A DNA stretch of 18,856 nucleotides from Candidatus Thorarchaeota archaeon (GCA_048882485.1 JBHLRP010000058.1:1-18856); one strand, 5' to 3'. Shown: positions 595-18,695, counted from the first letter of the stretch. Notes: a model not told the origin generated them from the letters alone. Made by a program: numbers and translations.

Positions 595-640
595 GGGCGG
601 GAGAACTCAAAATAGTGCTCTCGCCCACCTATCTCTTTCT
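595..640 (+). terminator. GC-rich hairpin plus pyrimidine tract after the MFS gene
   Basis: GGGCGGGAG (595-603) pairs with CTCTCGCCC (618-626), followed by TCTCTTTCT. Confidence 0.45.
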
Positions 641-716
641 AATCTTGTAGCCCTATGCTGTATGATTCATGAGGATGATTCGTTCAAAAGATAGAACTTT
701 CTAATACTCTAGATAC

Positions 717-1532
717 TTGCACACAGGTTACTGGATTCGCGGTGGGATTTCATTGAGGTTTCAATCACGAATAGACTGGAACTCTAGGAGAGTAAGGGGT
801 GGGATAGCGGCAACCACAGTGATTCTTCTTCTACTGCCAGCAATATGGTGCAGCTTCTTTTACAGGCTTTATCCTCAGGCACCTGCAATGGGACGTGCTA
901 ACGTCGAAATACTAGCAGACACCTTTGTCAGCACTGAAGATGATACTGATCACTCAAGCGAGGCAATAATCAGGATTAGCAATGCATCTGATGGAGAGAA
1001 TGAAACACTGGAAATAGCCTTCTTCGAATTCGAGTTGTATCCTCCGCCAGCGACGTCTTACCTTGCCGATTTGGTGTTTGAATTTGACTGCTCAGAGGTC
1101 CCAATGGGCGGAATCTTGAGATTTCACAAATGTGAATCAGTCACACTTGAGTCTAATGTGACATTTCACAGCAGGCCTGAGTATAATCCTGTGCCATTCA
1201 CCAACGTCACAATCACACAGAATGGCACCTACACGGTTTCACTACATGAAGAGGGTGGCTATACTGATTGGTCTGTCCAATTTGGATTGTTTGCCATAGT
1301 TGCAGATGGTGATGCCCAAATCATCATTCATTCATCGGATGCCGAGCCCAGATTTCAACCTCAGATGGAACTCTTTTCTCCACTCGGCCTCTGGATTAAC
1401 CCTGCAGAAAATCCACAACTATGTTATGTACATCCTCTTGCATGGGTTTCAGTTAGCGCCGCAATCGTACTGCTGTCCATTGGGTGCGTAAAATCATCAA
1501 AATTAGGAAGTGGCGCTGAGGGAGAGATTTGA
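717..1532 (+). CDS. Membrane-anchored extracellular protein, possibly DNRLRE/CBM96-like beta domain (true start may be TTG ~753)
   Basis: N- and C-terminal hydrophobic helices. The 'ADTFVS...IAFFEFEL...SSDAEPRFQPQMEL' pattern resembles DNRLRE domains. Five N-glycosylation sequons (NAS, NET, NVT x2, NGT). The stop codon lies inside the antisense tRNA fragment. Confidence 0.6.
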   Translation: MHTGYWIRGGISLRFQSRIDWNSRRVRGGIAATTVILLLLPAIWCSFFYRLYPQAPAMGRANVEILADTFVSTEDDTDHSSEAIIRISNASDGENETLEIAFFEFELYPPPATSYLADLVFEFDCSEVPMGGILRFHKCESVTLESNVTFHSRPEYNPVPFTNVTITQNGTYTVSLHEEGGYTDWSVQFGLFAIVADGDAQIIIHSSDAEPRFQPQMELFSPLGLWINPAENPQLCYVHPLAWVSVSAAIVLLSIGCVKSSKLGSGAEGEI

Positions 1533-1535
1533 ACT
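1505..1535 (-). repeat. att-like displaced 3' fragment of tRNA-Ser (T-loop to CCA plus 6-nt trailer), lacking the intron
   Basis: 1505-1529 is identical to 4328-4352, and 1530-1535 matches 4383-4388. Minus strand reads AGTTCAAATCTCTCCCTCAGCGCCACTTCCT. Confidence 0.9.
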
Positions 1536-1659
1536 GATTAGATATCACATCAATCTCTAAGAAGCACAGAGATTCTGATTCAAGTTGAAACGTTAATCGG
1601 ATAAGAAAAGATATACCGCCGCCAAGCTTCTATCTCCAAACAACCTGGAGGGCGGCTTT

Positions 1660-3867
1660 TTGTCAAATCTCCGATACACGACACGGGATGGCTCAACAAT
1701 AGAGGTAGCCCTAGAATCTGAAGAGATAATTTTGAAATCTAAAGATATAGTTAGTATTGACTTCTCTCAGATTAGTGAACTAGAGAATCCGATACTTGTG
1801 CATTTAGACCTATCACACAATAAAATGGAACATGTCGACTTTTCACCATTGGCTCATTGCAGGAAGTTAAGGTCCATTACAATCTCCCATAACGAACTGA
1901 CTGAAGTTAACTTAGTTCCAATTTCAGGCCTCGACATCCATAATCTGGATTTCAATCACAATCACATTGAGAAATTAGAACTATGCAATTTGCCTAGTCT
2001 TTTACAATTGAGCTTAGCCAGAAACTGGCTAGAAACAGTAGACCTTACGCCGCTCTCACATAGTCATGAATTGGAAACGCTGGATCTCTCACATAATAAC
2101 CTTGAAAGCATCAATCTCTCTCCACTTGCGAAATGCAAGAAGCTTAGAGAACTTGACCTCAGAGAAAATCAACTTCGTCTATTTGATTTTACCCCCATCA
2201 AGGCTCTATACTCTTCAAAACAGCTCAATCTCCGATTTGACTACGAAGATATGTACAAGGATGAGCACAACTTGAGCATTGAGTACAGAACTCATGCAGG
2301 TACGGAAACCATTGAGTTTCCATTCATTTGCACATCACTATGGTTAGAAGGCAAAGGGATCACCGAAATTGATCTGGATCAAATTCGAGAATTCAAGAAC
2401 ATAACTCGCATCAATTTGGAAGCAAACCATCTCGAAGAACTTGATCTGTCGATACTTGAGGAGTATCCAAATATAGAATGCCTACGGTTGGGAGAAAGCA
2501 AACTAAGCAAATTGGACTTGACTCCCCTTTCACATTGCAAATCAATAGCAATCTTAGATTTAGCGAATAATGGAATTCAAGACTTAGATTTGTCACCTCT
2601 TGCCATGTGCTCATCTCTTGAGATTCTCATTATTTCTGGAAATACTTTGCAGAGAAATATTGGACTAACACCGCTAGTCAAGTGCCAGAATCTAACTCAA
2701 TTATTTGCATCAAACTGTGGAGGGTTAGGGGAATCGTTTACGCCTTCGCTCTTCAAGGATCATGAATATCTAACCCAGTTGAACTTAAGCGGTAACGAAC
2801 TATCAGGATTTGATGCGCGTGCTCTTGGACCCAAACCCAACCTCGAAGCTCTTAGATTGGCATCTAATGCGTTTACTTCATTTGACTTCATACCACTGAG
2901 AAGTTTTGAAAGGCTCAAAGTCATTGACTTAGCCAACAATCCATTATCCAAAGTTGATTTGAGTCCTCTTTCTTCAAATACACCACTCTGTGTATTGTCG
3001 CTGCTGGATACTTGCTTGAAAAGCATTGACATTACATCACTGTATTATGTAATTGCAGGCCATTCAGCTTATTCGGATATTCGACTTCAGATAAGCAGCA
3101 ATGCAGACGAAAATGTAAAGATTGGCACAAAAGGGTTCAGCGACAGAAGGGAGATATGTTTCTTAAACGGAGAAAAGAAGCAAACGATCACCTATCCAAC
3201 AGTGTATGAAACTGAATTCGCTATCGTGATTGATGATTCAGTAAGGGTAACAATGGACAAGGCATTCAAACCGACATCTCAAACAGAAGGACGTCGTATG
3301 TCGGAATCCCTCTACGACCGTATCGATTGGATTCCAAGTAAATCGATAAATTCGATTACTGAAGATGAAGGGCTTCAGAATTTCGGAGAACTCATGCACC
3401 GAATTGGATACAACCCAACCATCACTGCATACAGCATTCTTGGGATGTATGAGATTAGTGCAATGAGAGATATTCTGATTGACATAGTCAAAGATGTCAA
3501 TCCAGAAGTAAGTGTAAATGATGGAATCATACAGCTATATGATAGGTGCGTAGATTATCTATCAAAGGAGATTGAGAATGGCAGAAGTACAATTGATTTT
3601 GACATTGAAGAACTGAAACTGACTAGTGCGGCACAGCTCGTTTCAATTATTATAGAAAACAGACGAAAAGAAGTTGAGAGTATTGAGTTTGAAGTCAAGG
3701 ATGGAGAAGTAGTGCTGGAGCCTCTGATTCAGACATTCTATGGTGGGAAGATTTTGAAAGAACTAGACATCCCCCAAAGGACGCGGATAACTAGGGAGAA
3801 TCTATACTTGATACGGGATGAATTCGACAAAGCGGGAATCAGATTGAAAATGCCAAGGGGCTGGTGA
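1660..3867 (+). CDS. Leucine-rich repeat protein (735 aa)
   Basis: Many LxxLxLxxNxLxxxDLxPL repeats of ~23-24 aa in two blocks. TTG start with GGAGG upstream (~1647). Confidence 0.92.
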   Translation: MSNLRYTTRDGSTIEVALESEEIILKSKDIVSIDFSQISELENPILVHLDLSHNKMEHVDFSPLAHCRKLRSITISHNELTEVNLVPISGLDIHNLDFNHNHIEKLELCNLPSLLQLSLARNWLETVDLTPLSHSHELETLDLSHNNLESINLSPLAKCKKLRELDLRENQLRLFDFTPIKALYSSKQLNLRFDYEDMYKDEHNLSIEYRTHAGTETIEFPFICTSLWLEGKGITEIDLDQIREFKNITRINLEANHLEELDLSILEEYPNIECLRLGESKLSKLDLTPLSHCKSIAILDLANNGIQDLDLSPLAMCSSLEILIISGNTLQRNIGLTPLVKCQNLTQLFASNCGGLGESFTPSLFKDHEYLTQLNLSGNELSGFDARALGPKPNLEALRLASNAFTSFDFIPLRSFERLKVIDLANNPLSKVDLSPLSSNTPLCVLSLLDTCLKSIDITSLYYVIAGHSAYSDIRLQISSNADENVKIGTKGFSDRREICFLNGEKKQTITYPTVYETEFAIVIDDSVRVTMDKAFKPTSQTEGRRMSESLYDRIDWIPSKSINSITEDEGLQNFGELMHRIGYNPTITAYSILGMYEISAMRDILIDIVKDVNPEVSVNDGIIQLYDRCVDYLSKEIENGRSTIDFDIEELKLTSAAQLVSIIIENRRKEVESIEFEVKDGEVVLEPLIQTFYGGKILKELDIPQRTRITRENLYLIRDEFDKAGIRLKMPRGW

Positions 3868-3873
3868 TGAAGA

Positions 3874-4236
3874 ATGCCACAGAGTATGAAGTACATTGTG
3901 AGAAACGTGACTGATTCAATCAAGACAATGTTAGACTTAGTGAAAGAAGCTGTTGACGGTGTTTGGTTTAATGCATCATGGCCTCATGAGGCCGATGATA
4001 AATGGATAGAGGGAAATGAGTACGACTATGGCCAAACCGCGGAAGGCATCAAAATTCCTCTTAAAGAGCGCCAGCTGTATCTTGAGAGAGTCGAGGAAAT
4101 GATGCTCTTTCCTCCTCATATGGATGTCTACATAGAGATCAGTCCTGTATTGGATTCGTTCTATGGTGAAATATGCATATTCTACGGTGGTCTGAAATCG
4201 AGTAAGAATTTCAAGGTGCGGCGAATCGATATTTGA
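3874..4236 (+). CDS. Hypothetical protein (120 aa)
   Basis: ATG 6 nt after the LRR stop on the same strand, plausible composition, no recognised motif. Confidence 0.55.
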   Translation: MPQSMKYIVRNVTDSIKTMLDLVKEAVDGVWFNASWPHEADDKWIEGNEYDYGQTAEGIKIPLKERQLYLERVEEMMLFPPHMDVYIEISPVLDSFYGEICIFYGGLKSSKNFKVRRIDI

Positions 4237-4333
4237 ACTCCTAAGATTATAACGAATATCCTACATTTCATGGGAGTTCGCCTTGATAATCTACCCATGA
4301 TCTATATCAAGAAAATATGACTAAAGAAGGAAG

Positions 4334-4476
4334 TGGCGCTGAGGGAGAGATTCCCAACTCTCATGGAAATCATGAGAATCTTTGAACTCTCGAGTGCATA
4401 GCACACTGGATGTTTGCAGGACTGCTAATAGCTGCCTATAGCAATCCAGCTCCATACCAGGCTTGGATACCTCAGC
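4334..4476 (-). tRNA. trnS: tRNA-Ser(GCT), encoded CCA, two introns (37/38 at 4412-4438; 59/60 at 4351-4380)
   Basis: Acceptor GCTGAGG/CCTCAGC, discriminator G, CCA. D-stem TCCA/TGGA. Anticodon stem CTGGA/TCCAG with GCT at 4442-4440. Long variable arm GTGC-TAT-GCAC. T-stem GAGAG/CTCTC with spliced loop TTCAAAT. Both introns form bulge-helix-bulge motifs. Confidence 0.95.
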
Positions 4477-4502
4477 TTATTTTCCTGCGAATCTCAGTTT
4501 TC

Positions 4503-4518
4503 TCTTAAACATTGTCGT
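4503..4518 (-). promoter_or_regulatory. BRE-TATA promoter of tRNA-Ser
   Basis: Minus strand CGACAATG-TTTAAG about 30 nt upstream of tRNA position 1. Confidence 0.7.
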
Positions 4519-4593
4519 AGTTCCTAGATTACTCAGATTGAAGGGGGCATCAGGTCTAGGTCATGGAGCATATAGCATTCGAGCATTTCTGCA

Positions 4594-5757
4594 CTAGTCT
4601 TTGCCTTTACTTTGGTTAGCAGCAGTTTGAATGTCCTCTCCAAGATAACAGGCAAGCGTAAATGAAAGAACTAGAGAGATCACTCCCAGGATCGCCAAGC
4701 TGATGGCGAACAGAGGATTAACCAAAGGGCTAGCTGTATAGTGATAAATCTCAGCGTTGAAACTGAGTTCAACATCTGAAACGACTCTCTCGAATCCAAG
4801 GCTCATTGTGGCTCCAGAGGATGTTGAAATCCTAATCCACCAATTCTCCTCCTCACTCTCGTAATGAAGAATGAATTGCTCCCAACTCCGATTAATCAAT
4901 GCGGGTTCCCCGTTCGACGATATATCAAAAAGCCGCAAATAGATGGGTGGGGGCAGAGAGGTCATAGGATCATACGTAGTTGGGCCAGTGTACACATTGG
5001 GGACCGTGATGTTTACCCACATGATCGGGTTTTCCGAGTTAAGAACTATAGAATGGGTTTCTGTCTTCAAAACCTCTTTGCGAAGTACCTCATCAAAATC
5101 TCCAACTACATAACCTGCGATGAGTGGATTGACACTAAGGGCGCCCATGAGAGTTAATGACAGTATGATGAGTGGGATGATTTCGCTTCTGAATTTTCTA
5201 CCTTTCAATTTCCTGATAACATGCACCGAATGAAGTCTAGCAGCCTTCTGAACAAACCAGCTAATACCCATTCCTGTGAAGATTGCAGCAATTACACTGA
5301 CAAGTGTGTTACCCTCGTATGTTGTTTGCTGAGGTTGAAAGGAGCTTAGATACCATAAATACAGGAACAAGCTGAAATTGACAGTATTCTGTGTTTGTCG
5401 AGTAACGGTTACATAATATGTATAGTCAGCAGCTGTTTCGAATTCGAAATCCGTATGAACATACGTGAGGTTCCGCAGTTCGAATATACTACCGGTTGCA
5501 TTATGGACCCTTAAGGAAACTGGCGATCCATTCGTAGAGATAAAACCCACATAACATCGGATTGCTTCGTGAGGCACTGTATACTGAAACTCATTGTTAG
5601 TGTCATTCAGGGTTTCTTGGAATATACGGAGATTGATATTTTCTTCTGGTGGCAAAGATGGTCTTTCTAGATTGAGCGGAACTACTACGCTCAGAGCTGC
5701 TACAAAAAGCAGCAACGTTATAATTAACGGAACAACAGATGCGCGACTCACGCGCAT
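4594..5757 (-). CDS. Multi-pass membrane protein with two extracellular domains (387 aa)
   Basis: Four hydrophobic segments arranged TM-domain-TM-TM-domain-TM, with many NxS/T sequons. No family recognised. Confidence 0.7.
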   Translation of the reverse strand: MRVSRASVVPLIITLLLFVAALSVVVPLNLERPSLPPEENINLRIFQETLNDTNNEFQYTVPHEAIRCYVGFISTNGSPVSLRVHNATGSIFELRNLTYVHTDFEFETAADYTYYVTVTRQTQNTVNFSLFLYLWYLSSFQPQQTTYEGNTLVSVIAAIFTGMGISWFVQKAARLHSVHVIRKLKGRKFRSEIIPLIILSLTLMGALSVNPLIAGYVVGDFDEVLRKEVLKTETHSIVLNSENPIMWVNITVPNVYTGPTTYDPMTSLPPPIYLRLFDISSNGEPALINRSWEQFILHYESEEENWWIRISTSSGATMSLGFERVVSDVELSFNAEIYHYTASPLVNPLFAISLAILGVISLVLSFTLACYLGEDIQTAANQSKGKD

Positions 5758-5882
5758 GTAAGACCTCTCCTAACGCAATTCTCAAACTACAACATCGAGA
5801 ATACCATCTAATTGTCACCACAGTACATATGCTTTGTTAAGAATGGACAAATGCACTAATATGAAGCATAAAATCAGTGAAG

Positions 5883-5943
5883 AGGCTTGGATACCTCAGC
5901 TTATTTTCCTGCGAATCTCAGTTTTCTCTTAAACGTTGTCGTA
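5883..5943 (-). repeat. Direct repeat of the tRNA-Ser promoter plus first 18 nt of the tRNA
   Basis: 60/61 identical to 4459-4519 (single difference, 4511 a vs 5935 g). Confidence 0.95.
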
Positions 5944-5969: not shown

Positions 5970-6285
5970 TGCAGCGGCCCCTTGACCTCGAGCGTCCTTC
6001 TCCTCAGTGCTATCAATCACCTTCCTCAGAGCAGCACCCTCTGAGGCTCCACCACTCCACCTTAGAGCTGTTCCCGCCAGGGCCTGACTCGGTTCGGTAG
6101 TTTATGCCAATCACAGCAATCCTACAAATGCTGCTATGGCAGTGACAGACTTCAGAGACCACCCGTCGCCGTCCAGTGAAAGGACACGTGAGTGTCCGGG
6201 TTCGTCCTCCGTTTCGGTTACTGGTTCCAGCTATTGCCATACCGGTTACAGGTCGCGGCAAACGACCCAACCCTACCCGCTGCGG
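5970..6285 (-). ncRNA. ffs: Archaeal SRP (7S) RNA
   Basis: Helix 1 GCAGCGG/CCGCTGC. Alu domain with helix 3 GGTCG/CGACC, a UGUAA motif, helix 4, and complementary loops TTGCCG/TGGCAA. Helix 6 has a GUAG loop. Helix 8 reads GAGT-CAGG-CCC-TGGC-GGG-AACA-GCTC. Length ~315 nt. Confidence 0.9.
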
Positions 6286-8169: not shown

Positions 8170-9466
8170 GTTTATATCATTTTGCAAAGGCATTCTTCGA
8201 CGCCTTTCGCGGCATACTTGTTTTCTTACGTTGTGAATATATGCGAAGGTACATACTCACTAACATGTGGAGAACCTACCGCTATCGAATGTATCCCAAC
8301 AAACGACAGTGGGAGTTAATCCGACAGAATATTGATGCTTGTCGATTCGTCTTTAATTGGGCGCTGGAGCACAAGAAAAGAACTTACGAGGGTGAGGGGA
8401 AATCCCTCTCTTGGTTTGATTTGAATAATATGCTTCGTGAATTAAAGACTGAAGAGCCCTGGCTCAAAGATGCATATTCACAATCGCTCCAAATGGCCAT
8501 TAGACGTGTCGATCTTGCATTCAAGCACTTCTATAGAAGAGTAAAGAATGGTGAGAAACCAGGATTTCCGAAATTTAAGTCCAAGAGAAATCTATCGCAA
8601 TCATTTGATATTCCTCAGTTTTTTGTAGTGGAATTCTCCAAAAAACGAGTAAAAGTACCGAAAATTGGCTACATTAAGACTGTATTTCATCGGGAATATA
8701 CGGGAAAGACTAGGCAAGCTGTAATTAAAATCGAAAAGTCTGGAAGAGTCTTCATCAACATCTTTGTCGAACTAAACGTCGAGCTCCCTGGACCATACAA
8801 AGTAAACAGAGAAAATACAGTTGGCTTGGATTTAGGCATAGCCAGTTACGCAATATCATCAAATGGTGAGAAGATAGACAATCCAAAGTATCTCGAAGAT
8901 TCTCTGCAACGGCTGATAGTTCTACAACGAAGGCTTAGCCGTAAGAAGAAAGGGTCCCATAACCATGAAAAGGCAAGGCGGCAAGTTGCCAAGCTCCATA
9001 ATCGAATTAGGAACCAGCGTCGTGATTTCCAACACAAGCTATCTACTAGAATGGTGTGCGAGAACCAAGGCATCGTAGTGGAAAGTTTGAATGTTTCTGG
9101 AATGATAAGAAATCCGAAACTCTCCAAAAGAATAGCTGATGCCGGATGGGCTGCTTTCATTATGATGTTGGAATATAAATGCAGATGCAGTGGTGTAGCG
9201 TTCATAAGAGTCGGACGGTTCGAGCCCACGTCAAAACTATGTAGCAATTGTGGTAATAAGAATGTCAACCTAGCACTTTCAGATCGCACGTGGACATGCC
9301 CTGCGTGTAAAACTGCACATGATAGAGATCACAATGCAGCTCTGAATATCAAACGATTAGGATTAGGAATTGATACACCCCAGGAACTGGGGGAAGAGCC
9401 TGTGGACCTGTCCCTTTGGGAAGGGTTGAAACAGGAAGCAGTTGACCTAGGTTAGCAGCAGTTCAC
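8170..9466 (+). mobile_element. IS200/IS605-family solo-tnpB element (IS1341-like, no tnpA)
   Basis: Candidate TAM TTGAT at 8165-8169, left-end hairpin GCAAAGGC/GCCTTTCGC at 8184-8210, and right end GAAGC-hairpin-GCAGTTCAC ending at 9466. The left boundary is uncertain. Confidence 0.75.
8265..9455 (+). CDS. tnpB: RNA-guided endonuclease TnpB
   Basis: N-terminal 'TYRYRMYP' HTH region, GFPKFK, RuvC-I VGLDLG, RuvC-II VVESL, zinc finger CSNC/CPAC, RuvC-III DRDHNAALNI. The D-E-D triad is intact. Confidence 0.96.
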   Translation: MWRTYRYRMYPNKRQWELIRQNIDACRFVFNWALEHKKRTYEGEGKSLSWFDLNNMLRELKTEEPWLKDAYSQSLQMAIRRVDLAFKHFYRRVKNGEKPGFPKFKSKRNLSQSFDIPQFFVVEFSKKRVKVPKIGYIKTVFHREYTGKTRQAVIKIEKSGRVFINIFVELNVELPGPYKVNRENTVGLDLGIASYAISSNGEKIDNPKYLEDSLQRLIVLQRRLSRKKKGSHNHEKARRQVAKLHNRIRNQRRDFQHKLSTRMVCENQGIVVESLNVSGMIRNPKLSKRIADAGWAAFIMMLEYKCRCSGVAFIRVGRFEPTSKLCSNCGNKNVNLALSDRTWTCPACKTAHDRDHNAALNIKRLGLGIDTPQELGEEPVDLSLWEGLKQEAVDLG

Positions 9467-15156: not shown

Positions 15157-15372
15157 ATGATAATTCCAATTCGATGTTTTACGTGTGGAAAACTAGTAGC
15201 TGACAAGTATGAGCAGTTCAAGCGCCAAGTTCGCCAAGGAGAAGACCCAGCGGCGGTCCTAGATAGCCTAGGGCTTCATAGGTATTGCTGCAGAAGAATG
15301 CTGTTGTCTCATATTGATATCATTGATAGCTTCATGGCATTCGCTACAACAGAGGTTGTGGAGGGTAAATAG
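15157..15372 (+). CDS. rpoN: DNA-directed RNA polymerase subunit N (Rpo10)
   Basis: [12 protein letters not shown]...[11 protein letters not shown]. Confidence 0.98.
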
Positions 15373-15373
15373 G

Positions 15374-15427
15374 ATGAGTGAAACAGAGATTCCTGAAGCC
15401 GAGCTCTTGACACCAATGGACAAGTAG
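15374..15427 (+). pseudogene. rps2: Truncated 5' stub of rps2 (17 codons)
   Basis: MSETEIPEAELLTPMDK* vs MSEIETSDVELLTPMDKY at 18060 (12/17 identical). Starts 1 nt after the rpoN stop. Confidence 0.88.
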
Positions 15428-17951: not shown

Positions 17952-18059
17952 CATCACTCAAGGGTTTCGACAAAGCTCAGTTCAATACATAGTATCATGG
18001 AGTCCATTCGATTTGATATCTGGTGACAATTCTGGCAAAAACTGTGGAGGAGCAATCGA

Positions 18060-18695
18060 ATGAGTGAAATTGAGACATCTGACGTAGAGCTGCTCACGCC
18101 TATGGACAAATATTTGGCCGCAGGATGCCATATCGGGACGCAGGTGAAGACGCAAGATATGGATTTCTTCGTGTATCGGCAGCGCCCAATCGGACTCTAC
18201 GTCCTAGATGTGAGAAAGACTGACGAGCGAATCAGAACCGCTGGCAAGTTTATCGCCCGGTTTGATTCCTCCAAGATAGTTGTGGTGTCAGGTCGTGTTT
18301 ACGGAAAGCGTCCTGTAGAAACATTTGCATATTACATTGGGGCGAATGCCTTTACTGAACGATTTGTACCAGGGACACTCACAAATCCTAATATTGCTGG
18401 TCCTAGGGTGTATGTAGAGCCTGAGCTCGTTATTCTCACTGACCCTCGTACAGACCAGCAGGCCCTATCCGAGGCGGCAAGGATTGGCGTACCAGTGATA
18501 GCACTGTGTGATACTGACAATCAGACAACCAATGTGGACCTCGTGATTCCGTCGAACAACAGAGGTCGTAAAGCACTGGCGCTGGTCTATTTCCTGCTCA
18601 CACGTCAGGTGTTGCGAGAACGCGGTGCCCTAACAGAGGAGGAGGAAACCGCATTTACAGCTGAGGACTTCGAGCCTCAGGTCCAACGGTTCTAG
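18060..18695 (+). CDS. rps2: 30S ribosomal protein S2
   Basis: YLAAGCHIGT, RFVPGTLTNP, IALCDTD, IPSNNRGRKALAL. Confidence 0.97.
   Translation: MSEIETSDVELLTPMDKYLAAGCHIGTQVKTQDMDFFVYRQRPIGLYVLDVRKTDERIRTAGKFIARFDSSKIVVVSGRVYGKRPVETFAYYIGANAFTERFVPGTLTNPNIAGPRVYVEPELVILTDPRTDQQALSEAARIGVPVIALCDTDNQTTNVDLVIPSNNRGRKALALVYFLLTRQVLRERGALTEEEETAFTAEDFEPQVQRF

Follow-up and report, generated by a model that had tools for sequence, protein, structure and literature searches.

What does it mean when a tRNA gene contains an intron that a displaced fragment of its own 3′ end lacks? The question is raised by a stretch of 18,856 nucleotides from a sediment-derived Asgard archaeon of the Candidatus Thorarchaeota (GCA_048882485.1, JBHLRP010000058.1:1-18856; hereafter, the window), which forms one contig of a 3.96-Mb metagenome-assembled genome (MAG) that is 90.5% complete (G000); homologues of the proteins it encodes carry the label Candidatus Thorarchaeota. 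In this window, the working tRNA-Ser(GCT) gene has a T-loop intron, and a fragment (stub) of the same 3′ end, lying beyond an inserted islet with a leucine-rich-repeat (LRR) gene, does not. A prediction made from the sequence alone took this arrangement as a record of intron gain, with the intron either delivered by the insert at an integrase attachment (att) site or acquired afterwards as a defense against re-integration. According to the analysis described here, the stub is probably the host's earlier, intron-less end, and the working 3′ half, carrying an old intron, is probably a lateral import from a related Thorarchaeota lineage (rough probability, 0.6). The process is thus best read as intron turnover by lateral allele replacement, and not as intron birth or anti-integration defense.

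The working gene and its displaced ends

The working gene, the sole tRNA-Ser(GCT) gene found in G000, lies on the minus strand at positions 4334-4476 and contains two introns, namely a 30-nt T-loop intron at tRNA position 59/60 (4351-4380) and a 27-nt anticodon intron at position 37/38 (4412-4438). The minimum-free-energy fold shows a strict bulge-helix-bulge (BHB) structure at the 59/60 intron (z -5.4); removal of this intron is predicted to yield a normal tRNA, with the spliced form matching intron-less relatives, and the genome encodes the splicing endonuclease EndA (PF01974 match, E 5e-20). The gene was not called at 4334-4476 by ARAGORN. A second tRNA-Ser(GCT) gene as the source of the stub was rejected, the two other "Ser(gct)" calls of the same program being tRNA-Leu(CAA). 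These miscalls fall in two 95%-identical copies (C131 and C157) of a two-intron tRNA-Leu(CAA) region, possibly reflecting a strain mixture.

The 3′ stub (1505-1535, minus strand) is, as originally described, an exactly spliced tRNA 3′ end: its reverse complement gives tRNA positions 52-76 followed by a 6-nt trailer, with 8 nt from the 5′ side (52-59) and 17 nt from the 3′ side (60-76) of the junction at which the working gene has the 30-nt intron. The chance expectation of this 25-nt exact repeat is 7e-9 per genome, and that of the six stub bases matching the spliced form alone corresponds to a p of 2.4e-4. Read antisense, positions 1505-1532 of the stub constitute the last codons and the stop of a 271-aa open reading frame (ORF), F49 (717-1532, plus strand), which lies directly 3′ of the tRNA gene in relatives with an empty site. 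In the related genome G011, the 30-nt intron leaves this antisense ORF in frame, lengthening it by ten residues.

At the other end, the promoter and tRNA nt 1-18 are duplicated at 5883-5943 (minus strand), the native position after the signal recognition particle (SRP) RNA; this 61-nt duplicate is identical to 4459-4519 at 60 of 61 sites. Together, the 3′ stub and the 5′ duplicate indicate that the gene has been displaced at both ends within a gene order that runs, along the tRNA strand, from IF2 through SRP RNA, tRNA-Ser(GCT), F49, and MFS to EF1-alpha. The arrangement is present in unitigs from two studies: unitig X6, from a separate study, covers 600-4428, and X2 and X4 cover 1430-4418 and 1511-4488, respectively. 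The layout recurs in a second MAG (L096), which is 99.97% identical. A joint of 1527 to 4381 was considered as a candidate empty site and rejected, with one side of 21 nt and a flank from another species (G020-like).

Distribution of the 59/60 intron in the family

The survey covered 63 working tRNA-Ser(GCT) genes from across the family, some of them near-duplicates. The 59/60 intron was found in 21 of these genes, from seven genera, with a length of 30 nt in 20, and most of the 59/60 introns can be aligned as a single type of hairpin whose stems covary. Judging from these alignments, the intron is old and homologous across the family and did not newly arise at this locus, so that the proposed gain of a new intron is not borne out. 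Copying between tRNAs can also be set aside, because the 30-mer was found in no other tRNA of G000 (none within seven mismatches; one non-tRNA match only). When a degenerate pattern of the intron was searched against GTDB genomes, the only match was to a G011 contig.

Nor does the intron follow the LRR islet. The two occur together in G000 only (1 of 21 intron-bearing genes, some on short contigs), with no LRR islet within 5 kb of the other 20; G011 has the intron without the islet, and LRR genes are present in G020, where the intron is lacking. Thus, the tabulation of co-occurrence fails to tie the intron to the insert.

Which copy is native

The intron is not universal among relatives. Six relatives with empty sites (L097, L098, L108, L109, L112, and L113) have an intact tRNA gene with the native promoter lying directly on F49, and none of the six has the 59/60 intron; these are other species rather than strains, mostly 88-92% identical in the flanking core genes. 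Given these six intron-less relatives, the stub probably preserves the native state. In the same clade, the four loci with stubs (G000, G011, G015, and L107) all have a 59/60 intron (Fisher P 0.005, with kin not independent). The anticodon intron of the window is identical to that of G013 and matches the empty-site alleles of L109 and L112 at 25 of 27 sites.

G011, which is 91% identical in core genes, has the identical 30-nt intron (30/30). Its tRNA gene, however, is preceded by a foreign promoter, differs in a D-stem pair, contains an intron in the D loop, and lacks the anticodon intron; a 17-nt 5′ stub of its own stands ahead of it. In the trees, the partners of G011 are the intron-less L097 and L098 rather than G000, and sisterhood of G000 and G011 was rejected by the approximately unbiased (AU) test (p 0.017 for MFS and 1e-5 for IF2). 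Since the two are not sisters, one gain without loss is rejected; the intron either arrived laterally on two occasions or was gained and then lost in some lineages. In G015 and G020, what is left of the native gene is a 5′ and a 3′ stub flanking a complete foreign tRNA gene in inverted orientation; L107 has the inverted gene and the 3′ stub.

Several side observations concern the upstream region. The working promoter of the window (4459-4521) is identical to the G015 promoter at 63 of 63 sites, with core genes just 84-87% identical. Two promoter types occur upstream of tRNA-Ser(GCT) (L031-L090), of which the second (TTTATG) is scattered across six genera and marks all seven inverted tRNA-Ser(GCT) loci outside genus g4. 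In G030 (L042), three stacked copies of the promoter with a 5′ stub (12-18 nt of tRNA), together with cargo genes, lie upstream of the working gene.

Parallel cases at rps2 and the SRP RNA

The polarity inferred at the tRNA can be read directly at rps2, which is split by the third islet of the window. The 5′ stub of rps2 (15357-15427, plus strand) shares 51 of 53 coding nt with the empty G011 site, versus 39 of 53 for the 5′ part of the working gene (18043-18173, plus strand), whose foreign tract extends to about nt 114. The foreign-type differences continue past the stub end at nt 54 (8 of 57 sites, versus 14 of 520; P 6e-4). By this comparison of alleles, the rps2 stub is the native end and the start of the working gene is of foreign origin, with loss of the host segment that lay between the joint and the crossover. 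In homology-facilitated illegitimate recombination, heterologous DNA is likewise inserted, and the stretch of recipient DNA from the joint to the crossover is deleted. The foreign tract beyond the stub end suggests that a homologous anchor combined with an illegitimate joint fits better than a single crossover. A foreign tract beyond the stub end, with loss of the host segment, is also seen in the tRNA genes of G011 and G020; at the stub of the window, such a tract would be unreadable because tRNA positions 38-59 are invariant.

The SRP RNA (5972-6282, minus strand) provides another case, being replaced in relatives by a diverged allele, or having its 3′ end duplicated, next to a ClC cassette. 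The diverged allele beside the ClC cassette, in G011 and L098, is 77% identical, versus 96% for the SRP RNA of L108 and G015, and in G004 the 3′ end of the SRP RNA has a 56-nt duplicate.

Stubs at other tRNA genes

In G000, tRNA stubs are also present at Leu(GAG), Phe, Val(GAC), Lys(CTT), and Gly(GCC), and across the family Val(GAC) is accompanied by arrays of up to five stubs. The 35 Val(GAC) stubs start at positions 31-36 (14 stubs), 37-38 (2), 39-44 (5), and 48-56 (14). The 37/38 intron is absent from all 14 anticodon-loop Val stubs, ten of which are in genomes whose working gene has it (44% of working genes have it; Fisher about 0.05 with two intron-bearing stubs included). Conversely, Val stubs in G080, G090, and G101 contain a 30-nt V-region intron that is absent from their working genes, and one G011 Val stub contains the 37/38 intron. 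This discordance between stubs and working genes in both directions indicates turnover rather than one-way gain. In the Val(GAC) genes of G076 (L183) and G087 (L173), two D-arm inserts occur, those of G076 resembling a single intron duplicated in tandem or in nested fashion.

These stubs also bear on the proposal that introns block integration. Stubs and islets are still found at genes that have introns (G091; the Val stub of G011), and some stubs hold introns that their working genes do not, both of which argue against a defensive role. What survives of the original prediction's interpretation is the identification of the displaced end as probably the host's intron-less original, to which the six relatives and the rps2 polarity point; the new gain, the link to the islet, the att mechanism, and the defense are not supported.

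Islets, cargo genes, and the search for recombinases

Islet A (1536-4327; GC content 0.40, versus 0.48 in the core) contains a 735-aa LRR protein gene (1660-3867, plus strand), with many LRR paralogues in the genome, and a 120-aa ORF (3874-4236, plus strand) whose only homologue in the searched length range is itself. Islet B (4520-5882; GC content 0.43, versus the same core value) contains a gene for a 387-aa predicted membrane protein (4594-5757, minus strand), the closest homologues of which (63-67%) are in other genera and at other loci. Near tRNA-Cys in G087 and G088, homologues of this protein are accompanied by a 44-nt flank repeat that has diverged, and no tRNA stub is present. Neither islet contains a recombinase gene. 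Farther along, an IS605-type TnpB gene (8241-9455) lies between IF2 and NDK; it is also present in G011 (93%) and not in G015.

Searches of G000 gave no match to PF00589, PF00239, or PF00078, that is, to tyrosine or serine recombinases or reverse transcriptase. PF00589 is wholly without a match there, the XerA type included, as it is in 57 of 86 family genomes. No integrase was seen adjoining the tRNA-Ser(GCT) loci read, no tRNA att repeats were found within about 10 kb of 20 family integrases (a crude screen, with many short contigs), and viral contigs searched for the intron or att gave no match. The islet ends share no common motif, the stub ends are variable, and duplication lengths span 7-69 nt. 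These results speak against the integrase att mechanism put forward originally.

Alternative explanations

Several observations weigh against an intron-less host end replaced by an imported one. The 30/30 intron identity of G000 and G011 also fits common descent, given that other pairs with at least 95% IF2 identity share 93-97%. The F49 tree conflicts with the flanking core genes and rejects vertical descent (AU p 3e-6), so that F49 itself was exchanged and the stub could have come in with it. The 6-nt trailer match was found in none of 56 other trailers, which requires a close donor or later homogenization. The contigs examined contained neither an empty site nor an excised form from this species, and a metagenome scan for the tRNA/F49 junction returned five chance matches, all unrelated. 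Stub ends are concentrated at loops (nt 17-18 for 5′ stubs, 31-36 and 48-56 for Val stubs), which is the pattern that site-specific integrases would give; tyrosine recombinases are encoded in 29 of 86 family genomes, and the incompleteness of G000 applies here as well. Islet A is flanked by a tRNA gene and a directly repeated copy of that gene's end, as integrase-targeted elements are.

The exchange of F49 leads to the strongest alternative, in which the intron is resident and shared with G011 by descent, and the trailer, islet A, the intron-less stub, and F49 were imported by a double crossover, with one exchange immediately 3′ of the intron and the other close to the MFS gene. The stub would then be a fossil of the donor, with no record of a gain in this lineage. 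F49 is 75-78% identical to that of G011, versus 91% in flanking genes, and groups weakly with L113; such an import would also account for the shared trailer, and the intron identity of G000 and G011 is consistent with their divergence. However, it requires intron loss in L097 and L098, both nearer to G011 than G000 is, and a crossover inside about 17-25 nt, and the intron-bearing gene of G011 is itself partly foreign. This explanation is accordingly regarded as improbable, if worth keeping in view.

Somewhat weaker is the proposal that a trans-acting tyrosine integrase placed islets at loop-centered att sites (T, D, and anticodon loops) of intron-less genes, with the intron arriving on the att arm, as in the Sugahara model, or later, and now blocking reuse of the site. 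The stub of the window starts at the T stem, as do those of G064, G006, and G008; the 5′ boundary of Val stubs is sharp, at positions 31-32; the missing 37/38 introns described above would follow; and integrases exist in the family. Against this stand the failure to find an integrase in the window, in G000, or beside the loci read, the family integrases and viral contigs without tRNA att repeats or matches, the variable duplications, and the same design at rps2 and SRP RNA, making such an enzyme an unlikely agent. Finally, a reverse-transcribed copy of the spliced tRNA or pre-tRNA would explain the exact splicing, and a pre-tRNA spliced ahead of 3′ trimming could retain trailer bases, but this origin is very improbable, the stub occupying the native 3′-end position of the empty-site relatives, G000 having yielded no reverse transcriptase, and other stubs containing introns or promoters.

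Proposed course of events

Under lateral allele replacement, donor DNA from a related lineage would carry cargo genes together with part or all of a conserved gene. Recombination would be homologous on one side, with illegitimate joining on the other (homology-anchored capture); the working gene would take the donor end with its introns, and a stub of the old end would stay behind. The intron-bearing 3′ half may have come in together with islet A or through a subsequent exchange of alleles, two possibilities that are inseparable here. The sequences, the states of the relatives, the polarity at rps2, and the failure to find an integrase are observations, from which the polarity at this tRNA and the route of recombination are deduced. 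Recurrent events would produce stub arrays and turn over intron content both ways.

More broadly, and only tentatively, gene capture in Thorarchaeota may be integrase-independent, with the ends of essential conserved genes (both tRNA ends, SRP RNA, and rps2) as homologous anchors; it might then be a main route of tRNA-intron gain and loss between lineages, with stubs as a readable record of earlier alleles. With respect to DNA uptake machinery, a weak partial DprA-like match was the only one found.

Relation to known systems

An insert-borne intron beside an intron-less fragment is a published concept: for tRNA-Thr(GGU) of Caldiarchaeum subterraneum, delivery of the intron on the incoming att and protection from further invasion were proposed (Sugahara et al., 2012; PMC3293823). 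The likeness lies in a displaced tRNA fragment without the intron that the reconstituted gene has. In Caldiarchaeum, however, the fragment comes from the 5′ end, the intron lies at 24/25, and a putative recombinase adjoins the tRNA (PMC3293823), whereas in Thorarchaeota there are both 3′ and 5′ stubs, a 59/60 intron that is old and family-wide, no recombinase found, discordance in both directions, and the additional cases at rps2 and SRP RNA. This integrase-free, family-wide form bears on the question of how Asgard tRNA introns arrive.

Additive flexible genomic islands at tRNA genes, as in Alteromonas, similarly show cargo cassettes, a duplicated 3′ end per insertion, and stub arrays, but these islands and tRNA fragments are ascribed largely to site-directed recombination (PMC5217437; 10.1101/2022.07.05.498093); here, no integrase was found, ends are variable, 5′ ends and promoters are duplicated, and incoming alleles alter intron content. 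In tRNA-dependent lysogeny, too, the host tRNA gene is disrupted by an insert that brings an entire gene of that isotype with it, as in G015, L107, and G020, but the process depends on a tyrosine integrase of the phage and on a fixed ~10-bp core (PMC10865867), in contrast to the 1-6 kb islets of host-like genes found here. The locus is thus likened to integrase elements but placed outside that class because no integrase was found with it. One homologous anchor plus one illegitimate joint is the arrangement of homology-facilitated illegitimate recombination, which was described in transformable bacteria (summarized in PMC6382021) and is not known from Asgard archaea, for which it is proposed here.

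Asgard tRNA genes are known to be heavily interrupted, with non-canonical BHB introns, repeated gains, and continual turnover (PMC11291895; bioRxiv 10.64898/2026.10.13.758758), a picture to which the present locus conforms. The 2026 preprint leaves the arrival route of these introns open, no general route having been found among its tests for copying between tRNAs, mobile-element hallmarks, and reverse transcription, and in a word search of it, neither Thorarchaeota nor horizontal transfer, recombination, or gene conversion came up (bioRxiv 10.64898/2026.10.13.758758). Such tests would miss integrase-free allele replacement.

Implications

Lateral replacement leaves the first formation of the intron unexplained. 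For this Thorarchaeota family, the findings weaken the idea of the intron as an anti-integration shield. If the proposed process is correct, many apparent terminal "gains" would be lateral imports of old introns, countable from stubs, and an undescribed route of gene capture would operate in a lineage close to eukaryotes.

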